Below the pieces are notes generated by a model. It did no database searches and had not been told where the DNA came from. It saw nothing but the letters and a program-made list of their open reading frames with translations. Shown here one piece after another: positions 48,514-59,233 of a stretch of DNA of 64,000 nucleotides (the stretch's first letter is position 1; the number at the start of each line of letters is the position of its first letter). Location of the stretch: the IMG/VR virus record IMGVR_UViG_3300032285_001531; one strand, given 5' to 3'. A program made the position numbers and the translations under genes. The stretch is from a virus (Duplodnaviria; Caudoviricetes).

Positions 48514-48899
48514 TAAAAGGCATTATGCAATCAGGTAAGTATTTGCATGTATCAGGGGGATATCCTTCTGCACCAAATATTAATTCTACGCAAAATAGAC
48601 AAACATCTAATTCACCATCTTCAGGTGACGTTCGTTATAACGCAACTGTAGCGGGATTAGAGATATATGATGGTTATAATTGGGTGTCATGGAATCCTTC
48701 ATATGCCAGTGTTGGGTTATCGCCTGAAGCAGAAGAACTACTTGACTGGGCCAAAGAAAAGCGCAACAAAGAACTTGAAGTAGAAAAACTAGCAAAAGTT
48801 AATCCAGCAGTTCATGATTTACTTGAGCAGATTAAAGAAAAGCAAGATCAACTTGAAATGGTAACAACATTACTAAAATCACCAGAGACAACATCTTAA
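48510..48899 (+). CDS. Hypothetical protein
   Basis: 129-aa ORF; GDVRYN...LEIYDG..W motif plus a helical C-terminus. Confidence 0.7.
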   Translation: MIKGIMQSGKYLHVSGGYPSAPNINSTQNRQTSNSPSSGDVRYNATVAGLEIYDGYNWVSWNPSYASVGLSPEAEELLDWAKEKRNKELEVEKLAKVNPAVHDLLEQIKEKQDQLEMVTTLLKSPETTS

Positions 48900-50473
48900 T
48901 GGAAAAAGACGATTTAACAAGTAAACAAAATCCTGATTGGGCATTGTTTTTACCTGCACTTAGTACATTCTATATTACTGGGTTAGGTAAACAGCGTAAA
49001 GGTGAAGAGTACTTTCCACCTGAACGTATACCAAAAGGTATTCCTGACTTAGAAGGATTGAATTTTCTTAATAGTCAAAAGGCATTATTCCCATACAAGT
49101 GGGCATTGTATTCTGCAGGTCATTCTGAATTAGATCCTAAGAAACAGGGCAATAGTGAAAGCATTGTACACGAACGTGAAAAAGGTACATTCATGTTAGG
49201 TGATTCAGGTGGATTTCAAATCTTAAAAGGTCAATGGCCTGCTGATTGGAAAGATCCTAATTGTCCTAAAGCAAAAAAGAAACGTGAACAGGTACTTGCA
49301 TGGATGGAAACATACATGGACTATGGCATGGTACTTGATATACCTTCACAATCATTGACTACATATCATTTACAAGATCCGAAAACACTTAAGAAAGATG
49401 AAAAGGGTAATATTATACCTGGCTCAGGTGTTTCACTGCATGGTATTAAAACTATTGAAGATGCTATTAAAGCTACACATATCAATAACAAATATTTTAT
49501 TGAGAATCGTATTGGTAAATGTAAGTTCTTAAATGTATTACAAGGTCGTAATCATACTCAAGCTGCTGAATGGTATAATGAGATGAAAGACTATTGTGAT
49601 CCTAAAAAGTATCCTGATAATCATTTTAATGGTTGGGCTATGGGAGGTCAAACTAAGATTGACATTAGCCTTTTTCTTAAATCATTAGTTAATATCATAC
49701 ATGATGACTTGTTACAAGAAGGTGTACATGATTGGATACACTGTTTAGGCACTAGTATATTAGAATGGGCATTGATATTCAGTGATGTACAACGAGCATT
49801 ACGCAAACATGCTAATCCAAAAGTAACTATTAGTTTTGACTGTGCAAGCCCATTCTTTAGTGCTGCTAAAGGCTTAGCATACTTTAACAATAATTTTGAA
49901 CACAATAAGAAGTGGTCTTATCAAATGGAAAAGACTGCTGAGAAAAAAGCATATGCTACTGATACCCGCAAATATAGAGATGGTGTATTAGCTGATGGCA
50001 TACATGAGATATTTGCCGACAGTCCTGTGACTGCAAATATGACAATGCAAGACTTATGTTATCGTGGTCAAGGCTTTCTTGGTCAACATGGTAAAGAAAC
50101 TAAAACAAGCTGGGATACATTAAGCTATACGTTATTGCAAGGTCATAATGTATATCAACATATGGTTGCTGTGCAAGAAGCTAATCGCAAATATGATACT
50201 AATATTATCCCAAGCATGTTGATACATGAAAAACATGAGCGTATACTGTTCAGTAACGTAGTAGAAGAAATCTTTAGTTTAAAAGATAGGCAAAAAAGTT
50301 TAGATAAAATTGAAGAATATAATTGGTTTTGGAATCAGTTTAAGAGTGGTAGTCAAGGTATGAGTGGTAGAAAAACTACTAATTCAGATACTATATATGG
50401 TGAATTTTTTACAGTAGCAGACGCACCACAAGTTATTGAAGTTCCTGAAGAAGAACCGGAAGATTTTAGATAA
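48899..50473 (+). CDS. dpdA: DpdA, TGT-family 7-deazaguanine DNA transglycosylase
   Basis: MLGDSGGFQ, VLDIP, NVLQG, GWAMGG, IHCLG and SFDCASP (TGT barrel motifs); next to folE/queD/queE. Confidence 0.85.
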   Translation: MEKDDLTSKQNPDWALFLPALSTFYITGLGKQRKGEEYFPPERIPKGIPDLEGLNFLNSQKALFPYKWALYSAGHSELDPKKQGNSESIVHEREKGTFMLGDSGGFQILKGQWPADWKDPNCPKAKKKREQVLAWMETYMDYGMVLDIPSQSLTTYHLQDPKTLKKDEKGNIIPGSGVSLHGIKTIEDAIKATHINNKYFIENRIGKCKFLNVLQGRNHTQAAEWYNEMKDYCDPKKYPDNHFNGWAMGGQTKIDISLFLKSLVNIIHDDLLQEGVHDWIHCLGTSILEWALIFSDVQRALRKHANPKVTISFDCASPFFSAAKGLAYFNNNFEHNKKWSYQMEKTAEKKAYATDTRKYRDGVLADGIHEIFADSPVTANMTMQDLCYRGQGFLGQHGKETKTSWDTLSYTLLQGHNVYQHMVAVQEANRKYDTNIIPSMLIHEKHERILFSNVVEEIFSLKDRQKSLDKIEEYNWFWNQFKSGSQGMSGRKTTNSDTIYGEFFTVADAPQVIEVPEEEPEDFR

Positions 50474-50484
50474 CAGAGGATATT

Positions 50485-50691
50485 ATGTACGAAGGTAAAA
50501 TCAAACAGTTAGAAGAAGCACATAAAGTGTTGAACAAACAAATAGATGATATGGAACGTAATCACCCACATGTTGAGGTAGATAAACTATCTGAAATGAA
50601 GAAGCGTAAATTAATGTTACGTGATGAGATAAGTCGCCTAAATAAATTACAATGGGAACATGACCACGACAGTGTGGACTTAGGAGAATAA
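50485..50691 (+). CDS. DUF465/YdcH-like small coiled-coil protein
   Basis: L.E.H..L.KQI........LKK.KL.LRDEI pattern. Confidence 0.7.
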   Translation: MYEGKIKQLEEAHKVLNKQIDDMERNHPHVEVDKLSEMKKRKLMLRDEISRLNKLQWEHDHDSVDLGE

Positions 50692-50692
50692 T

Positions 50693-51145
50693 ATGGATCA
50701 AAGAGAAATGGCATTAGCTGAAACTAGAATTAGAATCAAACAAACTGCTAAACGTATGATATTTGTTACCTTTCAAAAAGAAGGTATTCATAGATATCCT
50801 GCAGCAGCAACAGATCCTAACTTATGTACAGCAGGTGAATATGACGTATCGTTTCTTGCTAATCCACATCGTCATATATTTCATTTCAATGTTAATATTG
50901 AAGTGTTTCACAATGACCGTGATATAGAATTTATTCAATTCAAGCGTTGGCTAGAAGGTCTTTATAGCAAAGACATACTTGAATTGGATTTTAAAAGCTG
51001 CGAAATGATTAGCGATGACTTATATGAACAAATCGCTAGTCGTTACCCAGATCGTGACATTGAAATCACTGTAAGCGAAGATGGTGAGAACGGTGCAACG
51101 ATACATTATAGTACTACTAAACCACATTTATCAATAACACTTTAA
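50693..51145 (+). CDS. dpdL: QueD-paralog T-fold protein, DpdL-like (CDG decarboxylase)
   Basis: LANPHRHIF matches LxxxHRHxF (50855-50881); DRDIEFI and SCEMISDDL are T-fold motifs. Confidence 0.7.
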   Translation: MDQREMALAETRIRIKQTAKRMIFVTFQKEGIHRYPAAATDPNLCTAGEYDVSFLANPHRHIFHFNVNIEVFHNDRDIEFIQFKRWLEGLYSKDILELDFKSCEMISDDLYEQIASRYPDRDIEITVSEDGENGATIHYSTTKPHLSITL

Positions 51146-51154
51146 GGAAACAAA

Positions 51155-51358
51155 ATGGCAAAACTAGAAATCAAACCTAATCATAAAGTTCGTGCAATCT
51201 TTGACGATTTAGAAAAGTATCGCAACTTCTGCGTTGACTTTGGTTACAAGTTTGATGAGGCGCATTTGTATGATATGCGTGTATTCTCATACCGTCAACA
51301 TGCTAAACAATTAGCAGGTAAGAATCCAAAGGATCAATGGGCAGAGGATATGAGATAA
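51155..51358 (+). CDS. Hypothetical protein
   Basis: 67-aa ORF with an AAGGA SD. Confidence 0.75.
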   Translation: MAKLEIKPNHKVRAIFDDLEKYRNFCVDFGYKFDEAHLYDMRVFSYRQHAKQLAGKNPKDQWAEDMR

Positions 51359-51750
51359 TGGCTGTCTATACTATATCAACTAAAGAAAAGAAAAGCGTTG
51401 AAGAACGTGAGATTTGGGTTAAAGATGATTTAACTATCATTCGTATTAATGGCTTTCGTTGGGGTTCATATACAATTGAATTAGATGACGATGAAGAACT
51501 AGATATAGACCCAAACAATCCAGATGGCATAGACATGAACTGTTGCGGTTACGATGCAGAACTAGTTAGTATGGATGATGGTTGGTACGGTGATGTAGAG
51601 TATCCAGAAAGCATGAGTGATGAAGAACGTGAACGTATGGATGAAATATGGGACGAAGATTATTATGAAGGTTGGGAAGGTGAAGGTTGGATGCAAACTG
51701 ACACTGAAGCAATGTTCTATGGTCCATTAGAAATAACTAAGGAAGATTAA
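51358..51750 (+). CDS. Acidic hypothetical protein
   Basis: TAATG coupling at both ends; start moved to 51358. Confidence 0.75.
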   Translation: MAVYTISTKEKKSVEEREIWVKDDLTIIRINGFRWGSYTIELDDDEELDIDPNNPDGIDMNCCGYDAELVSMDDGWYGDVEYPESMSDEERERMDEIWDEDYYEGWEGEGWMQTDTEAMFYGPLEITKED

Positions 51751-52943
51751 TGCAAACATTATATTACATGGGTTTAGAACCCTATAAGGCAAGATATACT
51801 CTACAGTTACAAGAGTGGAATCGTGCTGTATTTGAACGTAGGGGAATAAACTATGTAATAGTTCCTGGTGAAACACTAAGTAATGACAAAGCCATTGTAA
51901 CGGGTCAAGTGTTAGATGCACATGGTCGCAGTTACTTTGGCATGAGTCAAATGATGAATCTAGTTAAATTAATGAAAGCAGGAGAAATTAATCATGCAGA
52001 TGTTATATACTTTGAGGACATGTTTCAACCCGGCATTGAGAGCCTACCTTATATTATTGATCAAATCCCTCATACTATGCGTCCTCGTATTGCTGTTCGT
52101 TGCCTTGCACAAACTATTGACCCCGATGATTTCGTTCATGTATGGGGTATGCAAGACTGGATGGGTCACTATGAAAAGATGGTTGATTCGTTCGTAGATA
52201 TTACACTTGCTACTAATGAAGAAATGGTAGCACATATGAAAATAGCAGGATGGAAGTCAAAGATTTATAATATCAGTGGCTTAGCATTCGGTAAAGATGA
52301 AGTACGTAATAGAATAGAAGGTGAACTAAAGCCATTCAATGAACGAACATATCGTGTTGGTTTTGCCGCACGTTGGGATCAGGAGAAACAACCTGACTTC
52401 TATATGGACTTGATTGAAGAATACAATCGTATACAAAGTATGGCATATAATGATTTTCCTAAAGTAGAGTTTTGCGTATTCAGTGGTAGTAAATTAAAAA
52501 GTAATAATAGTAGTTACATGGAACGCACAAAGAAATTGCAACAAGAAGGTAAGCTTGTTATATATGAGGATTTAGAAAAGAATGATTACTATAATTTGCT
52601 TAATGATACTCGTGTCTTGTTTAATTGTGCCCTACAAGATTGGGTTTCCAACACAGTCAGTGAAGCAGATACTCTTGGCTGTAACGTTTTATACCCTGCT
52701 TATAGGTCTTTCCCTGAAACTTTTGCTAATGACAGTGACAGGCTTTACATTCCTTGGTCAATGAATGATGCACTTGACAAGTTATTAAAACTATTAAAGC
52801 ATCCACATAAAGATATCGGTAAAATCAGTGACTATAATGATAAGACAATTGACAGAATTTGTGATATAATAACTGGTCAGGGCGAAAGATACTTGCGTAT
52901 GGATACTGACTATCGTAAGCATGTTAGCGAGACAAAATATTAA
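51750..52943 (+). CDS. GT-B fold glycosyltransferase (possibly DNA-modifying)
   Basis: YFEDMFQPG, FAARWDQEKQPDF, FNCALQD and EA..LGC..L.P..RSFPE (GT-B donor-binding region). Confidence 0.8.
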   Translation: MQTLYYMGLEPYKARYTLQLQEWNRAVFERRGINYVIVPGETLSNDKAIVTGQVLDAHGRSYFGMSQMMNLVKLMKAGEINHADVIYFEDMFQPGIESLPYIIDQIPHTMRPRIAVRCLAQTIDPDDFVHVWGMQDWMGHYEKMVDSFVDITLATNEEMVAHMKIAGWKSKIYNISGLAFGKDEVRNRIEGELKPFNERTYRVGFAARWDQEKQPDFYMDLIEEYNRIQSMAYNDFPKVEFCVFSGSKLKSNNSSYMERTKKLQQEGKLVIYEDLEKNDYYNLLNDTRVLFNCALQDWVSNTVSEADTLGCNVLYPAYRSFPETFANDSDRLYIPWSMNDALDKLLKLLKHPHKDIGKISDYNDKTIDRICDIITGQGERYLRMDTDYRKHVSETKY

Positions 52944-53161
52944 TGACTGCTATATTTACATATCTTTTTATAGGTGGAGTGTTAGGATTTCTAATAGGAT
53001 TGAACAAGCACCAAACACCTACTGGTCTTATTAACTATAATATTTTAAAAAACGAACGAGATGAATCTGAGAGAAAACTTTTGTATTACAAAAAGGTAAT
53101 CAAAGACCTAGTAGAAGATAATCGTAAGCTAGTAAAAGAATTAGAAGAACATAATAAATGA
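52943..53161 (+). CDS. Small membrane-anchored coiled-coil protein
   Basis: N-terminal TM helix; coupled to both neighbours. Confidence 0.7.
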   Translation: MTAIFTYLFIGGVLGFLIGLNKHQTPTGLINYNILKNERDESERKLLYYKKVIKDLVEDNRKLVKELEEHNK

Positions 53162-54141
53162 AAACAGTTGTAATTACCGGTTCAAATGGTTTTATAGGAA
53201 GTCATACTGCAAAAGTGTTTCGCAAAGCAGGTTACTATGTTGTGGGTATAGATAACAAATATACTATACCTGCAAATAAAGATTACTGTAATGAAGTTAG
53301 AATAGGTGATTATGACACTGTAGGCGCCTTTGCTATTCAGTATCATCAAGCTAATGCCATTGTGCATTGTGCTGCCAATTCACTTGTGGGACCAAGTATA
53401 AGTAATCCCTACAGTTATTATAACAATAATGTAGCAAAATTAAATCAATTTTTAAACACTTTACATGACATATATAATTGGCACGGTAGTATTATTTTTT
53501 CAAGTAGTGCTGCAGTGTATGGAACTAACTCTGATGAATCAATAAAAGAGAATGCCAACAAAGATCCAATAAGCCCATATGGTCGTAGTAAGTTAATGGG
53601 CGAACACATAATTAACGATTATTGTATTGCACATGGATATAAAGCAATTGCATTGCGTTATTTCAATGCAACTGGATGTGACATTGATGGTGAATTAGGT
53701 TGTATTAAGGATGATACTCATTTAGTTCCACGTGTTTCTACTGCAGCCTTGAATGAAAAATCATTAATCATTAATGGTAACGATTTCAACACTCCTGACG
53801 GTACATGCATACGTGATTACTTGCATGTAACTGACATTGCTAATGCACATTTAGCTGCTGTAGAGTTAAGTATGGGTTACAGTGAAGGTGAATTTGAAGT
53901 ATTCAATTTGGGTACTGGCACAGGATATAGTAACTTAGAAATTGCCAATGCATTCGTAGAGCATAATAAGATACCTTTAACTTGGGCATTTGGTCCTAGA
54001 CAAATAGGTGATCCTGATAAGCTAGTTGCAGATCCAATTAATTTTATACATGAAACTGGCTGGATGCCAGAACATAGTGATTTAGAAACAATAGTAACCA
54101 CAACTTTTGACTTCATGAAAAAAATGTATTACAATAATTGA
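53158..54141 (+). CDS. galE: UDP-glucose 4-epimerase
   Basis: TGSNGFIGSH, FSSSAAVYG, YGRSK, LRYFNA.G, DGTCIRDYLHV.D, R..GDP..LVAD. Confidence 0.93.
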   Translation: MKTVVITGSNGFIGSHTAKVFRKAGYYVVGIDNKYTIPANKDYCNEVRIGDYDTVGAFAIQYHQANAIVHCAANSLVGPSISNPYSYYNNNVAKLNQFLNTLHDIYNWHGSIIFSSSAAVYGTNSDESIKENANKDPISPYGRSKLMGEHIINDYCIAHGYKAIALRYFNATGCDIDGELGCIKDDTHLVPRVSTAALNEKSLIINGNDFNTPDGTCIRDYLHVTDIANAHLAAVELSMGYSEGEFEVFNLGTGTGYSNLEIANAFVEHNKIPLTWAFGPRQIGDPDKLVADPINFIHETGWMPEHSDLETIVTTTFDFMKKMYYNN

Positions 54142-54142
54142 A

Positions 54143-54149
54143 ATAAATA
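54143..54149 (+). promoter_or_regulatory. Late-promoter-like ATAAATA upstream of folE
   Basis: Intergenic motif followed by a ~55-nt leader. Confidence 0.45.
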
Positions 54150-54210
54150 GTTATGTAACACAAAGGTTACAAATAGTCAACAAAAAACCATCACAACGGA
54201 GGGTTATCAA

Positions 54211-54894
54211 ATGAGTTTTAATAAGACAAAAACAGATCCTATTTTAGGACAACAAGTACACGAACATTTAGTAAAAATGGGAGTTGAAACTCCAATGAAT
54301 GCTAATAATCGGGACCGTAAAGAAAAGATTGAATTAATTGAGAGCTATTTCGAAGGCATAATGATGGCTTTGGGTTTAGACTTACAAGATGATAGTCTTA
54401 ACGAAACACCTAAGCGTGTTGCTAAGATGTATGTTAACGAAATCTTTTGGGGATTAGATTATGATGCATTCCCTAAATGTACTACAGTAGACAACAAGAT
54501 GAATTACAACGAAATGGTAGTAGAACGCAATGTATCAGTGCAAAGTAACTGTGAACATCACTTTGTTATCATTGACGGTCTTGCTACAGTTGCGTATGTG
54601 CCTAATCAAAAAGTATTAGGACTAAGCAAAATCAATCGTATTGTAGAATACTTTAGTAAGCGTCCACAGATACAAGAACGACTAACAGAGCAAATCTTTC
54701 ACACACTATGCTATATCCTTGAAACAGACGATGTTGCAGTTCTTATAAATGCTAGACATTATTGTGTGCGTAGCAGGGGAGTCGAAGATGCCGGAAGTTC
54801 TACCGTTACTAGTAGATTAGGCGGTGGTTTCAAAACTGATCCTGCTGCAAGAGCAGAATTTATGAGGATGGTTTCTTTAAGCGACCTAAATTAA
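54211..54894 (+). CDS. folE: GTP cyclohydrolase I
   Basis: ETPKRVAKMY, CEHHF, GLSKINRIV, RPQIQERLT, H.CV..RG. Confidence 0.97.
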   Translation: MSFNKTKTDPILGQQVHEHLVKMGVETPMNANNRDRKEKIELIESYFEGIMMALGLDLQDDSLNETPKRVAKMYVNEIFWGLDYDAFPKCTTVDNKMNYNEMVVERNVSVQSNCEHHFVIIDGLATVAYVPNQKVLGLSKINRIVEYFSKRPQIQERLTEQIFHTLCYILETDDVAVLINARHYCVRSRGVEDAGSSTVTSRLGGGFKTDPAARAEFMRMVSLSDLN

Positions 54895-54952
54895 GAGAAT
54901 TTGTTGCAGGATCATCAGGAAATAGATGTTGTAAAAACTAGAGGATTAGAAG

Positions 54953-55426
54953 ATGATATTCAATCACATTAAGAAACTTAAAGCAGAAGGTAAGAAGATA
55001 GGTATAACATTTTCTACCTTCGACTTGTTACATGCAGGTCATATTGCTATGCTAAGTGAAGCAAAGAATCATTGTGATTATCTTATTGCTGGCTTACAAA
55101 CTGATCCAACAATAGATAGACCTGATACTAAGAATAAACCTGTGCAAAGTATTGTAGAACGACAAATTCAATTGTCAGCATGTCGTTATGTTGATGAAGT
55201 GGTTGTGTATCAAACTGAACAAGACTTAATTGACTTATTATTGATTCTACCAATAGATGTTAGAATACTAGGTGTAGAGTATGAGAACAAAGACTTTACC
55301 GGTAAGAAAGAATGCTGGGATCGTGACATTGAATTAGTATTCAATGGGCGTGATCATAGTTTCAGTTCTAGTAGTCTGCGTAAACGTGTTGCTAATGCAC
55401 AAATAGTTAATAAATTAAACAAATAA
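54953..55426 (+). CDS. Cytidylyltransferase (TagD-like, HxGH)
   Basis: TFDLLHAGH, GLQTDP, KPVQS..ER, SSSSLR. Confidence 0.88.
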   Translation: MIFNHIKKLKAEGKKIGITFSTFDLLHAGHIAMLSEAKNHCDYLIAGLQTDPTIDRPDTKNKPVQSIVERQIQLSACRYVDEVVVYQTEQDLIDLLLILPIDVRILGVEYENKDFTGKKECWDRDIELVFNGRDHSFSSSSLRKRVANAQIVNKLNK

Positions 55427-55430
55427 AAAT

Positions 55431-55476
55431 AGCGGTCTAGGCAATCACCCCGCTCTACAAATTCTGCTGCCTATGA
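55431..55476 (+). ncRNA. preQ1-I-like pseudoknot/riboswitch candidate in the queD leader
   Basis: P1 AGCGG/CCGCT, loop TCTAGGCAATCACC, A-rich linker, P2 TAGGCA/TGCCTA. Confidence 0.55.
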
Positions 55477-55494
55477 TAATGTAGGAAAATAGTT

Positions 55495-56025
55495 ATGACA
55501 ATCGTTAGTAAAGACAATGTTTGGGGAATGCCGACTAAACAATACAAATACACTAGTACCAAAGAATACCACGATGCATTTCCATGTGCATATCGTCAAT
55601 GGAGAGCAGACAGCCATTGTAACTTGATTCATGGTTATAGTTTTAGTATGAAGTTTTACTTTGGTACTGACAGTTTAGATGTACGTAATTGGGCTGCTGA
55701 CTATGGTGGATTAAAAGAACTAAAAGGTATACTGGAAGATCAGTTTGACCATACGTTACTTGTAGCACAAGATGATCCAGAGTTAGAAACATTCAAATTA
55801 TTACAAGAAAAGAAACTTGCTAAATTGACAATTCTTCCAAAATTAGGATGTGAAGGTTTAGCCGATATGCTTTACAAGTACGTGAATGGAGTGTATATTT
55901 CTGATATGTGGGGAGAGGGTGAAGCTGAACGTCTTTGGTGTTATCGTGTAGAAGTACGTGAAACTCAAAGTAACATGGCTTTTAGAGAAGGTCATAGACA
56001 TTGGAATGAGGACTTGTTTAAATGA
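55495..56025 (+). CDS. queD: 6-carboxy-5,6,7,8-tetrahydropterin synthase
   Basis: CNLIHGY, DYGGLK.LK..LEDQFDH.LL, GCEGLA, VEVRET..N.A. Confidence 0.9.
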   Translation: MTIVSKDNVWGMPTKQYKYTSTKEYHDAFPCAYRQWRADSHCNLIHGYSFSMKFYFGTDSLDVRNWAADYGGLKELKGILEDQFDHTLLVAQDDPELETFKLLQEKKLAKLTILPKLGCEGLADMLYKYVNGVYISDMWGEGEAERLWCYRVEVRETQSNMAFREGHRHWNEDLFK

Positions 56026-56579
56026 AAACATTAGTTAGTTATGCCGAGGTTGAACTACATTGTTTAACTATAGCAAAACAAATGAGCAAAGACAAATGGA
56101 TACCTGATTATATTGTAGGTATAACACGTGGTGGACTTTTACCTGCTGTCTTGCTAAGTAACTGGTTTGACTGTAAAATGTACACATTAGATGTAAGACT
56201 GCGTGATGGTAAAGGTGATGGATGCGAAAGCAATCTATGGATGCCCGAAGATGCAATCGGGTATGTACCAGAAGATCAACGTGGTGAAAGTGGCACACGA
56301 GTAGATCCGGCACATCGTAAGAATATATTAATCGTTGATGATATTAATGATACTGGTGCTACTATCAATTGGATTATGCAAGATTGGAAGAAAAGTTGTT
56401 TACCTAACAATAGTGCATGGGATACAGTATGGGGAAACAATGTAAAAGTTGCTACACTATTTGATCGTGGACTATCAAGCAATAGTGAAATGCCGCATCA
56501 GTATACAGGTGTATTAGTTACACAAGACAATGATCCGGGTTGGGTTGTATTTCCCTGGGAAAGCTGGTGTGGAGAATAA
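56022..56579 (+). CDS. Type I phosphoribosyltransferase (xanthine/guanine PRT-like)
   Basis: IVGITRGGL.PA, PRPP-binding ILIVDDINDTGAT, WVVFPWE. Confidence 0.92.
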   Translation: MKTLVSYAEVELHCLTIAKQMSKDKWIPDYIVGITRGGLLPAVLLSNWFDCKMYTLDVRLRDGKGDGCESNLWMPEDAIGYVPEDQRGESGTRVDPAHRKNILIVDDINDTGATINWIMQDWKKSCLPNNSAWDTVWGNNVKVATLFDRGLSSNSEMPHQYTGVLVTQDNDPGWVVFPWESWCGE

Positions 56580-56590
56580 TAGGAGAATAT

Positions 56591-56794
56591 ATGAAAGAAC
56601 TTACAATTATAGAAAAAACTAATTTTAAATTAAAACTAAAACAATGGAAATGTGAAACACCTAACGAATTAAATTCTATTGAATTTGTACAAGAACAAAT
56701 CAATGATGAGGGTGATGTAACTACAACGTCAACATATAACTTTTTTATGACTGATGCTGAACTTAAAAAATTGGCTGAGAGTTTATCACAATGA
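56591..56794 (+). CDS. Hypothetical protein
   Basis: AGGAG SD; start moved to ATG 56591. Confidence 0.75.
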   Translation: MKELTIIEKTNFKLKLKQWKCETPNELNSIEFVQEQINDEGDVTTTSTYNFFMTDAELKKLAESLSQ

Positions 56795-57660
56795 GTAAAT
56801 TAAAGATTGCTGAGTTGTTCTACAGCATTCAAGGGGAAGGAAGGTACATGGGTGTACCTTCTGTCTTTTTAAGAACATTCGGATGTAACTTCAAATGTCA
56901 AGGATTTGGTATGCCTAAGGGTGAACTAAGTCATGAGGCAGATGAAGTCGCACGTACACACAATGAAATAGAAACTTTCTTCAACTACAAAGACTTACCT
57001 TTAGTTAAGACAGGATGTGATAGTTATGCTAGCTGGCATCCAAGTTTCAAAGACTTAAGTCCTATGCTTACAACTGATGCTATTGTAGAACGTATTATGG
57101 AAATGCTTCCATATAATGAATGGCGTGAAGAACATCTAGTTATTACTGGTGGTGAACCACTACTAGGATGGCAGAAGTCATATATTGATTTACTTCAACA
57201 TCCTAAGATGCAGTCATTAAAAGAAATTACATTTGAAACAAATGGCACTCAACCGTTATCGCAAGAGTTACAAGACTATTTGCGTTGGAAGCCTGATAGT
57301 TGGACACATCATAAAGGTTATTTTGCATTAACATTTAGTGTAAGTCCTAAACTAACTAGCAGTGGTGAAAAACACGAAGATGCAATCAAGCCTGAAATCG
57401 TAGTTGACTATGAACGTTTCGGTTATACATATCTTAAGTTTGTTGTTGCTACAGAAGAAGATGCACAAGAGGCATTAGAAGTGACTAAGATGTATAGAGA
57501 AGCAGGATTCGTTGGACCTGTATACTTAATGCCAGTGGGTGGTGTTGAGAGTGTATATTCATTAAACAATCGTAGAGTAGCAGACCTTGCTATGAAACAT
57601 GGTTTACGTTATAGTGATAGACTACAAGTGCCTCTCTTTAAGAATGAGTGGGGAACATGA
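56791..57660 (+). CDS. queE: 7-carboxy-7-deazaguanine synthase (radical SAM)
   Basis: ELFYSIQGEG, FLRTFGCNFKC...CDS, VITGGEPL, ETNGT, SVSPK, R.SDRLQ. Confidence 0.93.
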   Translation: MSKLKIAELFYSIQGEGRYMGVPSVFLRTFGCNFKCQGFGMPKGELSHEADEVARTHNEIETFFNYKDLPLVKTGCDSYASWHPSFKDLSPMLTTDAIVERIMEMLPYNEWREEHLVITGGEPLLGWQKSYIDLLQHPKMQSLKEITFETNGTQPLSQELQDYLRWKPDSWTHHKGYFALTFSVSPKLTSSGEKHEDAIKPEIVVDYERFGYTYLKFVVATEEDAQEALEVTKMYREAGFVGPVYLMPVGGVESVYSLNNRRVADLAMKHGLRYSDRLQVPLFKNEWGT

Positions 57661-57887
57661 TGGGATATTCTTATGAAGGACAAAAGTATGTAGTCTATGA
57701 TTACATACTAATTTGGAATTTACAATTTTGTTGGTTCCCAAAAAAATGTCATAGGTCAAATAAATTAATTTGGCTTAAACATGCATATAAAGGTATTCAT
57801 AAATTAACTGGTCCTGGTTATAACATTGACGTAGAAGTATGGCATCATCCATACGAACATATGAGATTTATTTTAGAGGCAGTATGA
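57657..57887 (+). CDS. Hypothetical protein
   Basis: Coupled by ATGA overlaps at both ends. Confidence 0.65.
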   Translation: MMGYSYEGQKYVVYDYILIWNLQFCWFPKKCHRSNKLIWLKHAYKGIHKLTGPGYNIDVEVWHHPYEHMRFILEAV

Positions 57888-59233
57888 GAACGTATGATAA
57901 ACGTATAGCATTTTTAGTTAGTTATCAAACATTGATTCCTCATGGGGGCATAGGACAATTCACTAAAAGTTTTATTGAGTTGATGGATAGCCACAATATC
58001 AAAGTAGATATCATAACTGACAAGAAACCACAAGACAGTGAATTCATTAAATCAATCAATACTAATATAATCTATCCAGATGAGTCATTACCATATACCG
58101 ATCATAGTGCTATCTTTATGTACGGTGATAGTTATTGCTTTGAACGTATGGCAAACTTTCGTAATTCAATTATCAAAGCATTGACAAATAATCTATATGA
58201 TGCAATGATATGTAATACTTATGAAACTGTACAAGTTGCAAGTACTATGGGTCTAGAAGATGTTATTCAAATCATTGCCTATACACACTTAGAAAGTCAA
58301 ATATTCAAAGATACTAAGAATCCTTTCTTACACAGTGTTAATGACATGATGCGTAAGCAATTAGAACTTAATGGATTATATGTGGGTACTCAAAGTAAAT
58401 TTAATCAATTGAATATTAGTGACACTGCATATCATCTTCCTATTCCAATCACAGAACAAGAGTTGTTAAAAGAATATCATAAACCTAGAGAAGGTGTATT
58501 GTTTATCGGTCGGTGGGAAGAAGGAAAGAATCCTGAACTATACTTAGATTTAATTGAGCAAACTAAATTACCTGCAAAAGTAATGACTAGTGCAAATGGT
58601 GCTAAAAAGTTTGAAGAACGACTGAAGAAGATCGGTGTCAAGTATGATATTCGTGTAGGTATCTTAGGCCCAGAGAAAGTTGATTTTATCACTGGTAGTC
58701 GTGTTGCATTTAATCCTAGCACAGTTGAAAGCTATGGTATGGCTTTTCATGAACAGCATATTCAATTGCCTACGTTTGTATTAGAGAATCAGCGTTGGAC
58801 AAAAAACTTTAATAGTAGTTACTTTTTGACAACTAATAAGAAAAACATGGCTAAGGATGTATTAGACATGTATAATCATAGTACTGATGCAAGTTTATGG
58901 TATGAGACTGGATCTTTGAAACATGCACAACAAATTGAAGCAGATATATTTCATAAATGGAATGAGTGTTTTAACAGTTTCACCCCAAAGCAAAGTAATA
59001 GCAATACAGCAAAAATATTGACTTATGATACCGTTGTTTATGCTGATTATATTAAAGATTTGGATAGAAATATGGTGTGTATTGATGACATACGAAGTGT
59101 GTTGACAAACAAGAAGAAGTATGCTACTATCTTGTATACTGATAACCACACAATATTATCAAAAGATAAAGATTATGTGCCAGTTATTAAAGATGAAACA
59201 GATTCATTCACTGATTTATTTGAATTTATATAA
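57884..59233 (+). CDS. GT-B (GT4-like) glycosyltransferase
   Basis: HGGIGQF, LFIGRWEEGKNP, FNPSTVESYGMAF.E. Start moved to 57884. Confidence 0.85.
   Translation: MRTYDKRIAFLVSYQTLIPHGGIGQFTKSFIELMDSHNIKVDIITDKKPQDSEFIKSINTNIIYPDESLPYTDHSAIFMYGDSYCFERMANFRNSIIKALTNNLYDAMICNTYETVQVASTMGLEDVIQIIAYTHLESQIFKDTKNPFLHSVNDMMRKQLELNGLYVGTQSKFNQLNISDTAYHLPIPITEQELLKEYHKPREGVLFIGRWEEGKNPELYLDLIEQTKLPAKVMTSANGAKKFEERLKKIGVKYDIRVGILGPEKVDFITGSRVAFNPSTVESYGMAFHEQHIQLPTFVLENQRWTKNFNSSYFLTTNKKNMAKDVLDMYNHSTDASLWYETGSLKHAQQIEADIFHKWNECFNSFTPKQSNSNTAKILTYDTVVYADYIKDLDRNMVCIDDIRSVLTNKKKYATILYTDNHTILSKDKDYVPVIKDETDSFTDLFEFI

Follow-up and report, generated by a model that had tools for sequence, protein, structure and literature searches.

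The leader of the queD gene in the phage DNA analysed here (a stretch of 64,000 nucleotides, referred to as the window) is in our judgement probably a cis-regulatory RNA that combines the aptamer and the expression platform of a translational riboswitch which is specific to phages and has not been described before. Comparison of related leaders revealed a common structure, its conservation, an exclusive link to queD and a design in which two helices, P2 and P3, are predicted to exclude each other; a small molecule is the presumed effector, and any identity assigned to it below is presumptive as well. The element unites the traits generally seen in riboswitches, namely a covarying aptamer, invariant loops, a position in the sense 5′ leader of a gene of one pathway, and varied expression platforms.

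Architecture of the queD leader

The leader occupies the 68-base gap between the stop codon of the upstream gene (55424–55426), located 4 nt before helix P1, and the ATG of queD. It is composed of the following parts.

55431–55435, + strand: 5′ strand of helix P1, AGCGG, pairs with 55450–55454
55436–55437, + strand: start of loop L1, U-C; the family pattern is N-C-U
55438–55443, + strand: 5′ strand of helix P2, UAGGCA; the family core GGCA lies at 55440–55443
55444–55449, + strand: loop L2, AUCACC; the family consensus is UCAUC and the last C (55449) is invariant
55450–55454, + strand: 3′ strand of P1, CCGCU
55455–55467, + strand: conserved 13-nt linker L3, CUACAAAUUCUGC as RNA and CTACAAATTCTGC in DNA letters
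55468–55473, + strand: 3′ strand of P2, UGCCUA, common to P2 and P3
55470–55485, + strand: hairpin P3, CCUAU (55470–55474), loop GAUAAU (55475–55480), GUAGG (55481–55485)
55483–55486, + strand: Shine-Dalgarno (SD) sequence AGGA, 8 nt 5′ of the queD ATG
55495–56025, + strand: queD, the putatively regulated gene, 176 aa, 6-carboxytetrahydropterin synthase-like, Pfam PTPS and PHROG 2389

The strands of P1 enclose a 14-nt loop, TCTAGGCAATCACC, and the U at 55438, equivalent to the U at L1 position 3 of the family, is able to lengthen P2 in the window. A preliminary description of this DNA had drawn the stem AGCGG/CCGCT with its loop, a 13-nt linker and the pairing of TGCCTA with TAGGCA of the loop, and each of these elements was located exactly where it had been placed. 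The alternative pairing of CCTAT (55470–55474) with GTAGG (55481–55485), proposed at the same time, is likewise present and hides the AGG of the SD sequence AGGA; its CCUA is shared between P3 and P2.

The P2 duplex of the window was calculated at −8.7 kcal/mol, a value without pseudoknot loop penalty, and P3 at −4.3 kcal/mol (RNAfold); therefore the two states may be close in energy, pseudoknot energies being approximate. The nested minimum free energy of the window leader was −11.8 kcal/mol as compared to −13.4 ± 2.7 kcal/mol for shuffled sequences (z = 0.60). Taken alone, the window sequence folds no better than chance, and significance arises only by comparison with relatives. Single-sequence folding, which is uninformative for a pseudoknot, was dropped as evidence. 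A covariance model built from relatives gave one match in the window, at 55428–55476, with 56.1 bits and E = 1.7e-16.

Covariation and conserved loops

The structure was analysed in a MAFFT alignment of 115 distinct aptamers and a consensus derived from 188 unique aptamers, with a P1-only covariance model trained on 117 unique aptamers, and in two motif-blind sets of loci chosen by their QueD protein and aligned by a model without P2. In the MAFFT alignment P1 was paired in 100% of cases, and three of its five pairs showed double changes and never a one-sided change. The 188 unique aptamers contained ten P1 pair combinations around the consensus AGCGG/CCGCU, in which the two uppermost G-C pairs do not vary.

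The core of P2 was 81% paired in the MAFFT alignment and all four of its pairs covaried; the covariation score was 0.395, whereas column shuffles gave 0.11 and sliding the partners by 1–3 columns gave 0.07 at most. In the two motif-blind sets P2 was paired to 90.5% and 94.5%, again with four of four pairs covarying, and the scores reached 0.61 and 0.62 versus 0.16; kinship among the sequences inflates such shuffle-based statistics, a concern which the slid-partner controls and the motif-blind sets lessen and do not remove. An alignment-free test yielded a mean of −5.04 kcal/mol for cognate loop/tail duplexes versus −3.97 kcal/mol for non-cognate ones, and in 2000 permutations no value as low as the cognate mean arose. 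Across the 188 unique aptamers P2 is GC-rich and 4–7 bp long, with variants such as GGCA/UGCC, GGCG/CGCC, GGUA/UACC, AACG/CGUU, AUGC/GCAU, GACGC/GUGUC and ACGUCAU/AUGUCGU. G-U pairs outnumbered A-C mismatches in P2 by 82 to 24, and therefore the RNA should be the one read from the + strand, i.e. the queD strand. A check for covariation among phage queD leaders, suggested in the preliminary description, thus found it in P1 as well as in P2, and the H-type pseudoknot proposed there proved to be real, holding across more than 300 loci with both helices covarying.

The unpaired parts of the aptamer are conserved to an unusual degree, with about 17 unpaired bases fixed across the family. In the 188 unique aptamers L1 has the form N-C-U followed by 0–9 nt, C at position 2 and U at position 3 being present in 100% and position 1 being occupied by U (40%), C (32%) or A (26%). 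The last base of L2, directly 5′ of the 3′ strand of P1, was C in 188/188. L3 measured exactly 13 nt in 188/188, with the consensus WUANAAAYUCUGC, in which A3, A5, A7, U9, C10 and C13 were found in 100% and U11 and G12 in 97%; the 3′ strand of P2 follows directly after the CUGC of L3 in all relatives. Pairing of this CUGC with the 5′ strand of P1 or with the loop GCA was considered and dropped, as CUGC is fixed while its would-be partners vary.

Position 4 of L3 covaries with base pair 3 of P1 (mutual information 0.65; in the window 55458 with 55433/55452), a signal that shared ancestry could inflate. Aptamers with C-G at this base pair carried C or U at L3 position 4 in 141 of 147 cases, and those with A-U or U-A carried A in 41 of 41. 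This coupling suggests that L3 runs along P1 in a fixed register, and it suggests loop-helix triples as in the SAM-II, guanidine-III and preQ1-II riboswitches; the pair and the loop base may form a base triple which sets the register of L3, or their coupling may be a lineage effect.

A short aptamer variant was observed in queD clade 2 (loci L231, L247, L249, L265, L280, L271 and L273). It has a 10-nt L3 (CUAAUUCUGC-like) and a P1 of 4 bp (AAGG/CCUU) and scored only 15–21 bits with the model; its P2 strands are still complementary (GGCG/CGCC, AGCG/CGCU).

Association with queD and distribution

The open reading frame behind the leader matched Pfam PTPS with E = 9.3e-15 and PHROG 2389 (QueD-like) with E = 5e-37, and the order of its neighbourhood in the window is folE, nucleotidyltransferase, leader, queD, phosphoribosyltransferase, queE. 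Searches of IMG/VR with the first two QueD queries each provided at least about 600 candidate stretches and the third provided 315; the clade-1 query yielded at least 596 QueD relatives, from which the best 80 loci were taken by protein alone. The leader was visibly conserved in these best 80 of at least 596 loci, and the motif preceded queD in 79 of the 79 that had upstream sequence, a motif-blind result for clade 1. Among IMG/VR loci of the other clades, also chosen by QueD protein, it preceded queD in 74 of 80 (clade 2) and 71 of 80 (clade 3). The three QueD clades are only 35–45% identical to one another.

A degenerate pattern of 22–23 nt from the region of the P1 3′ strand and L3 retrieved at least 119 further IMG/VR loci. 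The next open reading frame encoded QueD in 114 of the 119 pattern loci listed, some of these proteins being only 35–60% identical to that of the window; four of the 119 had one inserted gene between motif and queD, so that in 118 of the 119 queD came first or second after the motif. The remaining pattern loci were one that ends before any open reading frame and another in which no motif was present on re-examination. The inserted genes encode a SAM-dependent methyltransferase (L020:2130–2960), a cupin (L120:6409–6750, − strand) and two proteins without Pfam match (L130:4432–5163 and L157:4955–5803); they would be under the same control as queD. The covariance model found one motif copy per locus, and no second copy before other pathway genes in the window and about 1.4 Mb of flanking sequence.

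The 15 clade-2 and clade-3 loci without model match comprised two with the short-L3 variant below threshold, one at a contig end and the rest without motif. In the aptamer-less relatives L369 (330–400), L267 and L269 a plain TTGACA-N17-TAnnnT promoter stands in place of the aptamer, and L369 has kept the 3′ half of a type-B platform (see below) despite the loss of the aptamer. These three loci are natural constitutive controls. L367 (280–400) has two tandem queD paralogues, in which the C-terminal end of a clade-1 QueD is directly followed by the beginning of a clade-3 QueD.

Neither megablast nor blastn found close relatives in GenBank phages, and blastn gave no match of the element in 50,697 GenBank phage records. 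In six cultured phages with QueD proteins of about 44–54% identity, queD abuts the upstream gene without leader space and the model found no match. A pattern search of 185,579 GTDB species genomes gave 15 matches, as compared to about nine expected by chance, and only one of these, L212 (110–163, − strand, CAZXGO010000106.1), was the full motif; the other pattern matches had no P1. L212 is an 8-kb contig binned with the metagenome-assembled genome of an uncultured member of the Chitinophagales, and it may be a phage fragment binned there by mistake or else point to the host lineage. Three gut Lachnospiraceae contigs (L213, L214 and L205) share the 23-nt pattern UUCAUCCCNNUNUANAAAUUCUGC without a P1 partner, and these matches probably reflect conserved coding sequence instead of the motif. 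A full-text literature search found no paper that connects a riboswitch with queD or 7-deazaguanine genes of phages.

The constant link to a single gene can also be read in terms of a protein. According to this reading, which we regard as rather unlikely, a protein of the phage or the host binds the pseudoknot as an operator of translation, for example in an autoregulation by QueD or through a RegA- or gp32-like regulator, and by stabilising or disrupting P2 it would determine how accessible the ribosome site is. RNA operators are known from T4-type phages, one of them a pseudoknot in the gene 32 leader, which provides a precedent; under autoregulation queD should be the one gene that invariably accompanies the motif, as was found, and the long, invariant, single-stranded L3 could serve as recognition site. 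The queD leader resembles the gene 32 pseudoknot and the RegA operators as an mRNA leader structure of a phage which concerns the translation of one gene. Those elements are operated by proteins and are repressive, however, whereas the design of the queD leader predicts activation. Furthermore, the unpaired bases do not vary among three clades whose QueD proteins have diverged to 35–45% identity, and no RNA-binding domain was seen in QueD (Pfam detected PTPS only). A small covarying pseudoknot with fixed loops and swappable platforms before a single metabolic gene is the usual signature of a riboswitch, the reading which we prefer.

Expression platforms and predicted direction of control

The same aptamer is followed by three platform designs. 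In type A, represented by 80 unique leaders including that of the window, the last CC of P2 opens a hairpin CCUAUG...CAUAGG, the 3′ strand of which is part of the SD sequence (UAGGAG). P3 of type A hardly varies, and therefore its support by covariation is thin. In the 31 type-B leaders the partner of the P2 3′ strand together with AUC is GAUGGC, which comprises the start codon itself; this helix of seven pairs was 96% paired and showed CG-to-UA and UG/CG/UA exchanges. In the six leaders of type C the helix is AUGUCU/AGACAU, its second strand lying at the 3′ edge of the SD sequence.

As the 3′ strand of P2 also belongs to the helix masking the SD sequence or the AUG, formation of the pseudoknot should free the ribosome site. 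An ON switch had been put forward in the preliminary description; the competition between P2 and the SD-masking helix on which this idea was based recurred in three platform designs and more than 300 loci, and the sign of the switch is a deduction from the pairing. The mechanism which we propose starts from an aptamer (55431–55473) in the form of an H-type pseudoknot with a 5-bp P1, a P2 of 4–6 bp and the fixed L3 of 13 nt, whose roughly 17 invariant unpaired bases would make up the binding pocket. As long as nothing keeps the pseudoknot closed, P3 would form and hide the ribosome site, with the AUG as partner in some relatives; stabilisation of P2 by a ligand or another factor would leave the site free and permit translation of queD. 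The Vibrio add adenine riboswitch offers a parallel, since there also a strand of the aptamer competes with a helix masking the SD sequence and AUG and the bound state opens the site; add is built as a three-way junction, whereas the present element is a pseudoknot in a phage. ON switches on biosynthetic genes are unusual.

The calculated stabilities also bear on an element that functions without any ligand, as a stabiliser of the mRNA 5′ end, an RNA thermometer, a folding device for a fixed level of expression or a recoding signal for the upstream stop codon. With −8.7 kcal/mol for its duplex and a GC-rich composition, P2 could be stable enough to form unaided, and SD-masking hairpins as weak as P3 (−4 to −8 kcal/mol) can act as thermometers. 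We nevertheless consider this group of explanations quite improbable, because the invariant unpaired bases and the fixed length of L3 would be left unexplained. A recoding function draws on the start of P1 only 4 nt after the upstream stop in the window; in the relatives this distance lies anywhere between −2 and about 190 nt, different genes precede the leader, promoter-like sites often intervene, and the motif travels with queD and not with the upstream gene. A readthrough or frameshift pseudoknot for the upstream gene was excluded on account of this variable spacing and the variable upstream genes.

Transcription and promoter-like sequences

Roughly 45% of the distinct loci have a sigma70-like promoter or the sequence ATAAATA that ends 2–35 nt 5′ of P1, and TTGACA-17-TATAAT stands just before P1 in L048, L060, L080 and L123. 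The aptamer would therefore be the 5′ end of the mRNA where such a site is used. ATAAATA is enriched 5′ of P1 (42 of 114 distinct upstream flanks); its interpretation as a T4-type late promoter was kept as a lead only, since it often overlaps the upstream stop codon. No sigma70-like site (TTGACA/TATAAT-like hexamers spaced by 16–18 nt) was found on the + strand across the element in the window. As no clear promoter was seen in the window 5′ of P1 either, queD may share a transcript with the upstream gene there. A sigma70-like TTGTCA-17-TATCAT with 10/12 matches spans the queD start on the − strand (55501–55473), and one such minus-strand site in the queD-start region compares with 1.4 expected by chance. 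A GC-rich hairpin followed by a U run, as expected for an intrinsic terminator, was absent from 55250–55600, and P1 was rejected as a terminator as it has no U tract.

A near-consensus sigma70-like site is embedded in 71 of the 80 type-A leaders and in none of the 31 type-B leaders. Its −35 element consists of the first six bases of L3 (TTTACA or TATACA), the 17-nt spacer contains the 3′ strand of P2 and the P3 loop provides TGnTATAAT; the site of L033 (2960–2988), TTTACA-17-TATAAT with TG, showed 11/12 matches. The embedded promoter may be an extra feature giving a short, aptamer-less and unregulated queD mRNA. As much of L3 and the P3 loop of type A read as a strong sigma70-like promoter, part of the conservation may be at the level of DNA.

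Carried to its end, this consideration leads to a promoter, with −35 in L3 and −10 in the P3 loop, combined with an inverted-repeat operator and no functional RNA at all. The frequency of the embedded site in type-A relatives (71/80, with 11/12 matches in L033) and the palindrome CCTATG...CATAGG around the −10 element are in its favour. The window, however, has no such site on the + strand, and the 31 type-B leaders have none either, yet their L3 is equally conserved. Moreover, a promoter cannot explain the covariation between the strands of P1 or between the P1 loop and the spacer, nor the bias of G-U over A-C. Covariation of P1 and P2 largely refutes this explanation, which we regard as extremely improbable.

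Relation to preQ1 and other known riboswitches

Type I–III preQ1-I riboswitches (RF00522) are represented, for example, by B. subtilis queC, T. tengcongensis and E. coli yhhQ, and the formation of their P2 sequesters the SD sequence or forms a terminator, which makes them OFF switches. At the Rfam gathering scores no family was detected in the whole 64-kb window, including RF01054 (preQ1-II) and RF02680 (preQ1-III), and RF00522, with a gathering score of 39 bits, gave no match for the window or L017 even at E ≤ 10. Permissive Rfam scans of three leaders returned only chance matches and a weak PreQ1 match. The shortest variant, L042, reached 14.6 bits with RF00522 (E = 0.53), one of only two sub-threshold Rfam matches; the sole sub-threshold preQ1-II match, also in L042, obtained 18.1 of 47 bits and aligns unstructured flanks only. 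None of 38 large motif-bearing viral records exceeded the RF00522 threshold, the best score anywhere in a record being 19.7 bits. The preliminary description had called the element preQ1-I-like and named the comparison by Infernal with the Rfam preQ1 models as a check. The layout as an H-type pseudoknot stood up, and membership in an Rfam preQ1 class did not: no class was reached, with at most 14.6 of the 39 bits for RF00522 on the leaders.

Members of preQ1-I have a 5-bp P1 of the AGNGG/CCNCU type, an A-rich start of L3 and a P2 formed with the 3′ tail (PMC10639078, PMC10622847). Their L1 is very short (about 2 nt), and a conserved U in it recognises the edge of the ligand (PMC10639078, PMC10622847), and the cytosine at the end of L2 forms a Watson-Crick pair with the ligand (PMC10622847). 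They are found before genes of the que pathway (PMC10639078). The queD element agrees with them in the H-type pseudoknot, the 5-bp P1 of the same type, a P2 made of the P1 loop and the 3′ tail, the conserved C at the junction of L2 and P1 (C55449 in the window), the A-rich start of L3 and the proximity to a gene of the 7-deazaguanine pathway. In contrast to the preQ1-I L1 of 2–3 nt with its fixed U, L1 of the element consists of N-C-U plus 0–9 nt with a variable first base. Its L3 is fixed at 13 nt, with conserved A only at positions 3 and 5–7 followed by UCUGC, and its P2 comprises 4–7 GC-rich pairs with the SD sequence outside. P2 of the element would free the ribosome site instead of hiding it, so that the regulatory sign is reversed, and the element was found only in uncultured phages.

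These similarities would also fit a true and very divergent preQ1-I subtype which binds preQ1 or preQ0 in the classical pocket. The common type of P1, the invariant C, the A-rich L3 start, the P2 from the 3′ tail, the que-pathway gene downstream and the weak RF00522 match of L042 agree with such a relationship. It is unlikely in view of RF00522 scores of 0 to 14.6 versus 39 bits on the leaders and 0/38 records over threshold, of an L1 that is longer and lacks a conserved U as first base, of a 13-nt L3 with additional UCUGC, and of an SD sequence outside P2 with ON instead of OFF logic; furthermore, phages without full-length QueC probably make neither preQ0 nor preQ1. On our best reading of the sequences, the element resembles preQ1-I and should not be filed as a member.

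The SAM-II, guanidine-III and preQ1-II riboswitches are comparable to the element in being compact and in having loops that line helical grooves. In contrast to them, the element has no Rfam match at the gathering score and a different gene context.

Pathway context and candidate ligands

The cluster at 48899–59233 of the window contains folE, queD and queE together with phosphoribosyltransferase, nucleotidyltransferase, epimerase and glycosyltransferase-like genes; its ORFs of 524 and 150 aa had no Pfam or NCBIfam match. A full-length QueC (Pfam) was not found in the 38 large motif-bearing phage records, nine of which are at least 90% complete (222–360 kb), and four partial matches were obtained. 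Therefore, preQ0 and preQ1 are probably not made by these phages. Pfam TGT gave no match in five records, a result that cannot indicate absence of DpdA, which is too divergent for this profile.

The invariant C suggests a guanine-faced ligand. Candidates would be guanine-faced heterocycles of the pathway, either 7-deazaguanines (CDG, 7-deazaguanine, preQ0) or the pterins H2NTP and CPH4. CDG, 7-deazaguanine or their nucleotides fit better than preQ0 or preQ1, because full-length QueC is lacking and queD is followed by a phosphoribosyltransferase gene. The surmise in the preliminary description that preQ1 itself may not be the ligand agrees with this, on circumstantial grounds. The substrate and product of QueD, both pterins with the same hydrogen-bonding face, may fit as well. 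A precursor or a shortage signal would be a more suitable trigger for an ON switch than an end product.

Implications for phage DNA modification

To our knowledge, all validated riboswitch classes are found in cellular genomes, and the copies in phages were borrowed from hosts. We tentatively suggest, with somewhat more doubt than conviction, that the queD leader represents a virus-only class in jumbo freshwater phages, which senses a guanine-faced intermediate of DNA hypermodification (CDG, 7-deazaguanine or H2NTP/CPH4, and not preQ1) and switches queD ON, so that DNA modification would be controlled in a feed-forward manner while the phage infects its host. The ligand would then report a limiting intermediate of the pathway in phages without QueC. 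With about 70 nt including its platform the element is short, and several hundred natural variants as well as natural aptamer-less controls are at hand. For structural and synthetic biology it would provide a new small aptamer fold, or a far-diverged relative of preQ1-I with reversed logic. For the phages themselves it would mean that they meter their anti-restriction DNA chemistry, in which guanine is replaced by 7-deazaguanines in phage DNA, with metabolite sensors of their own.
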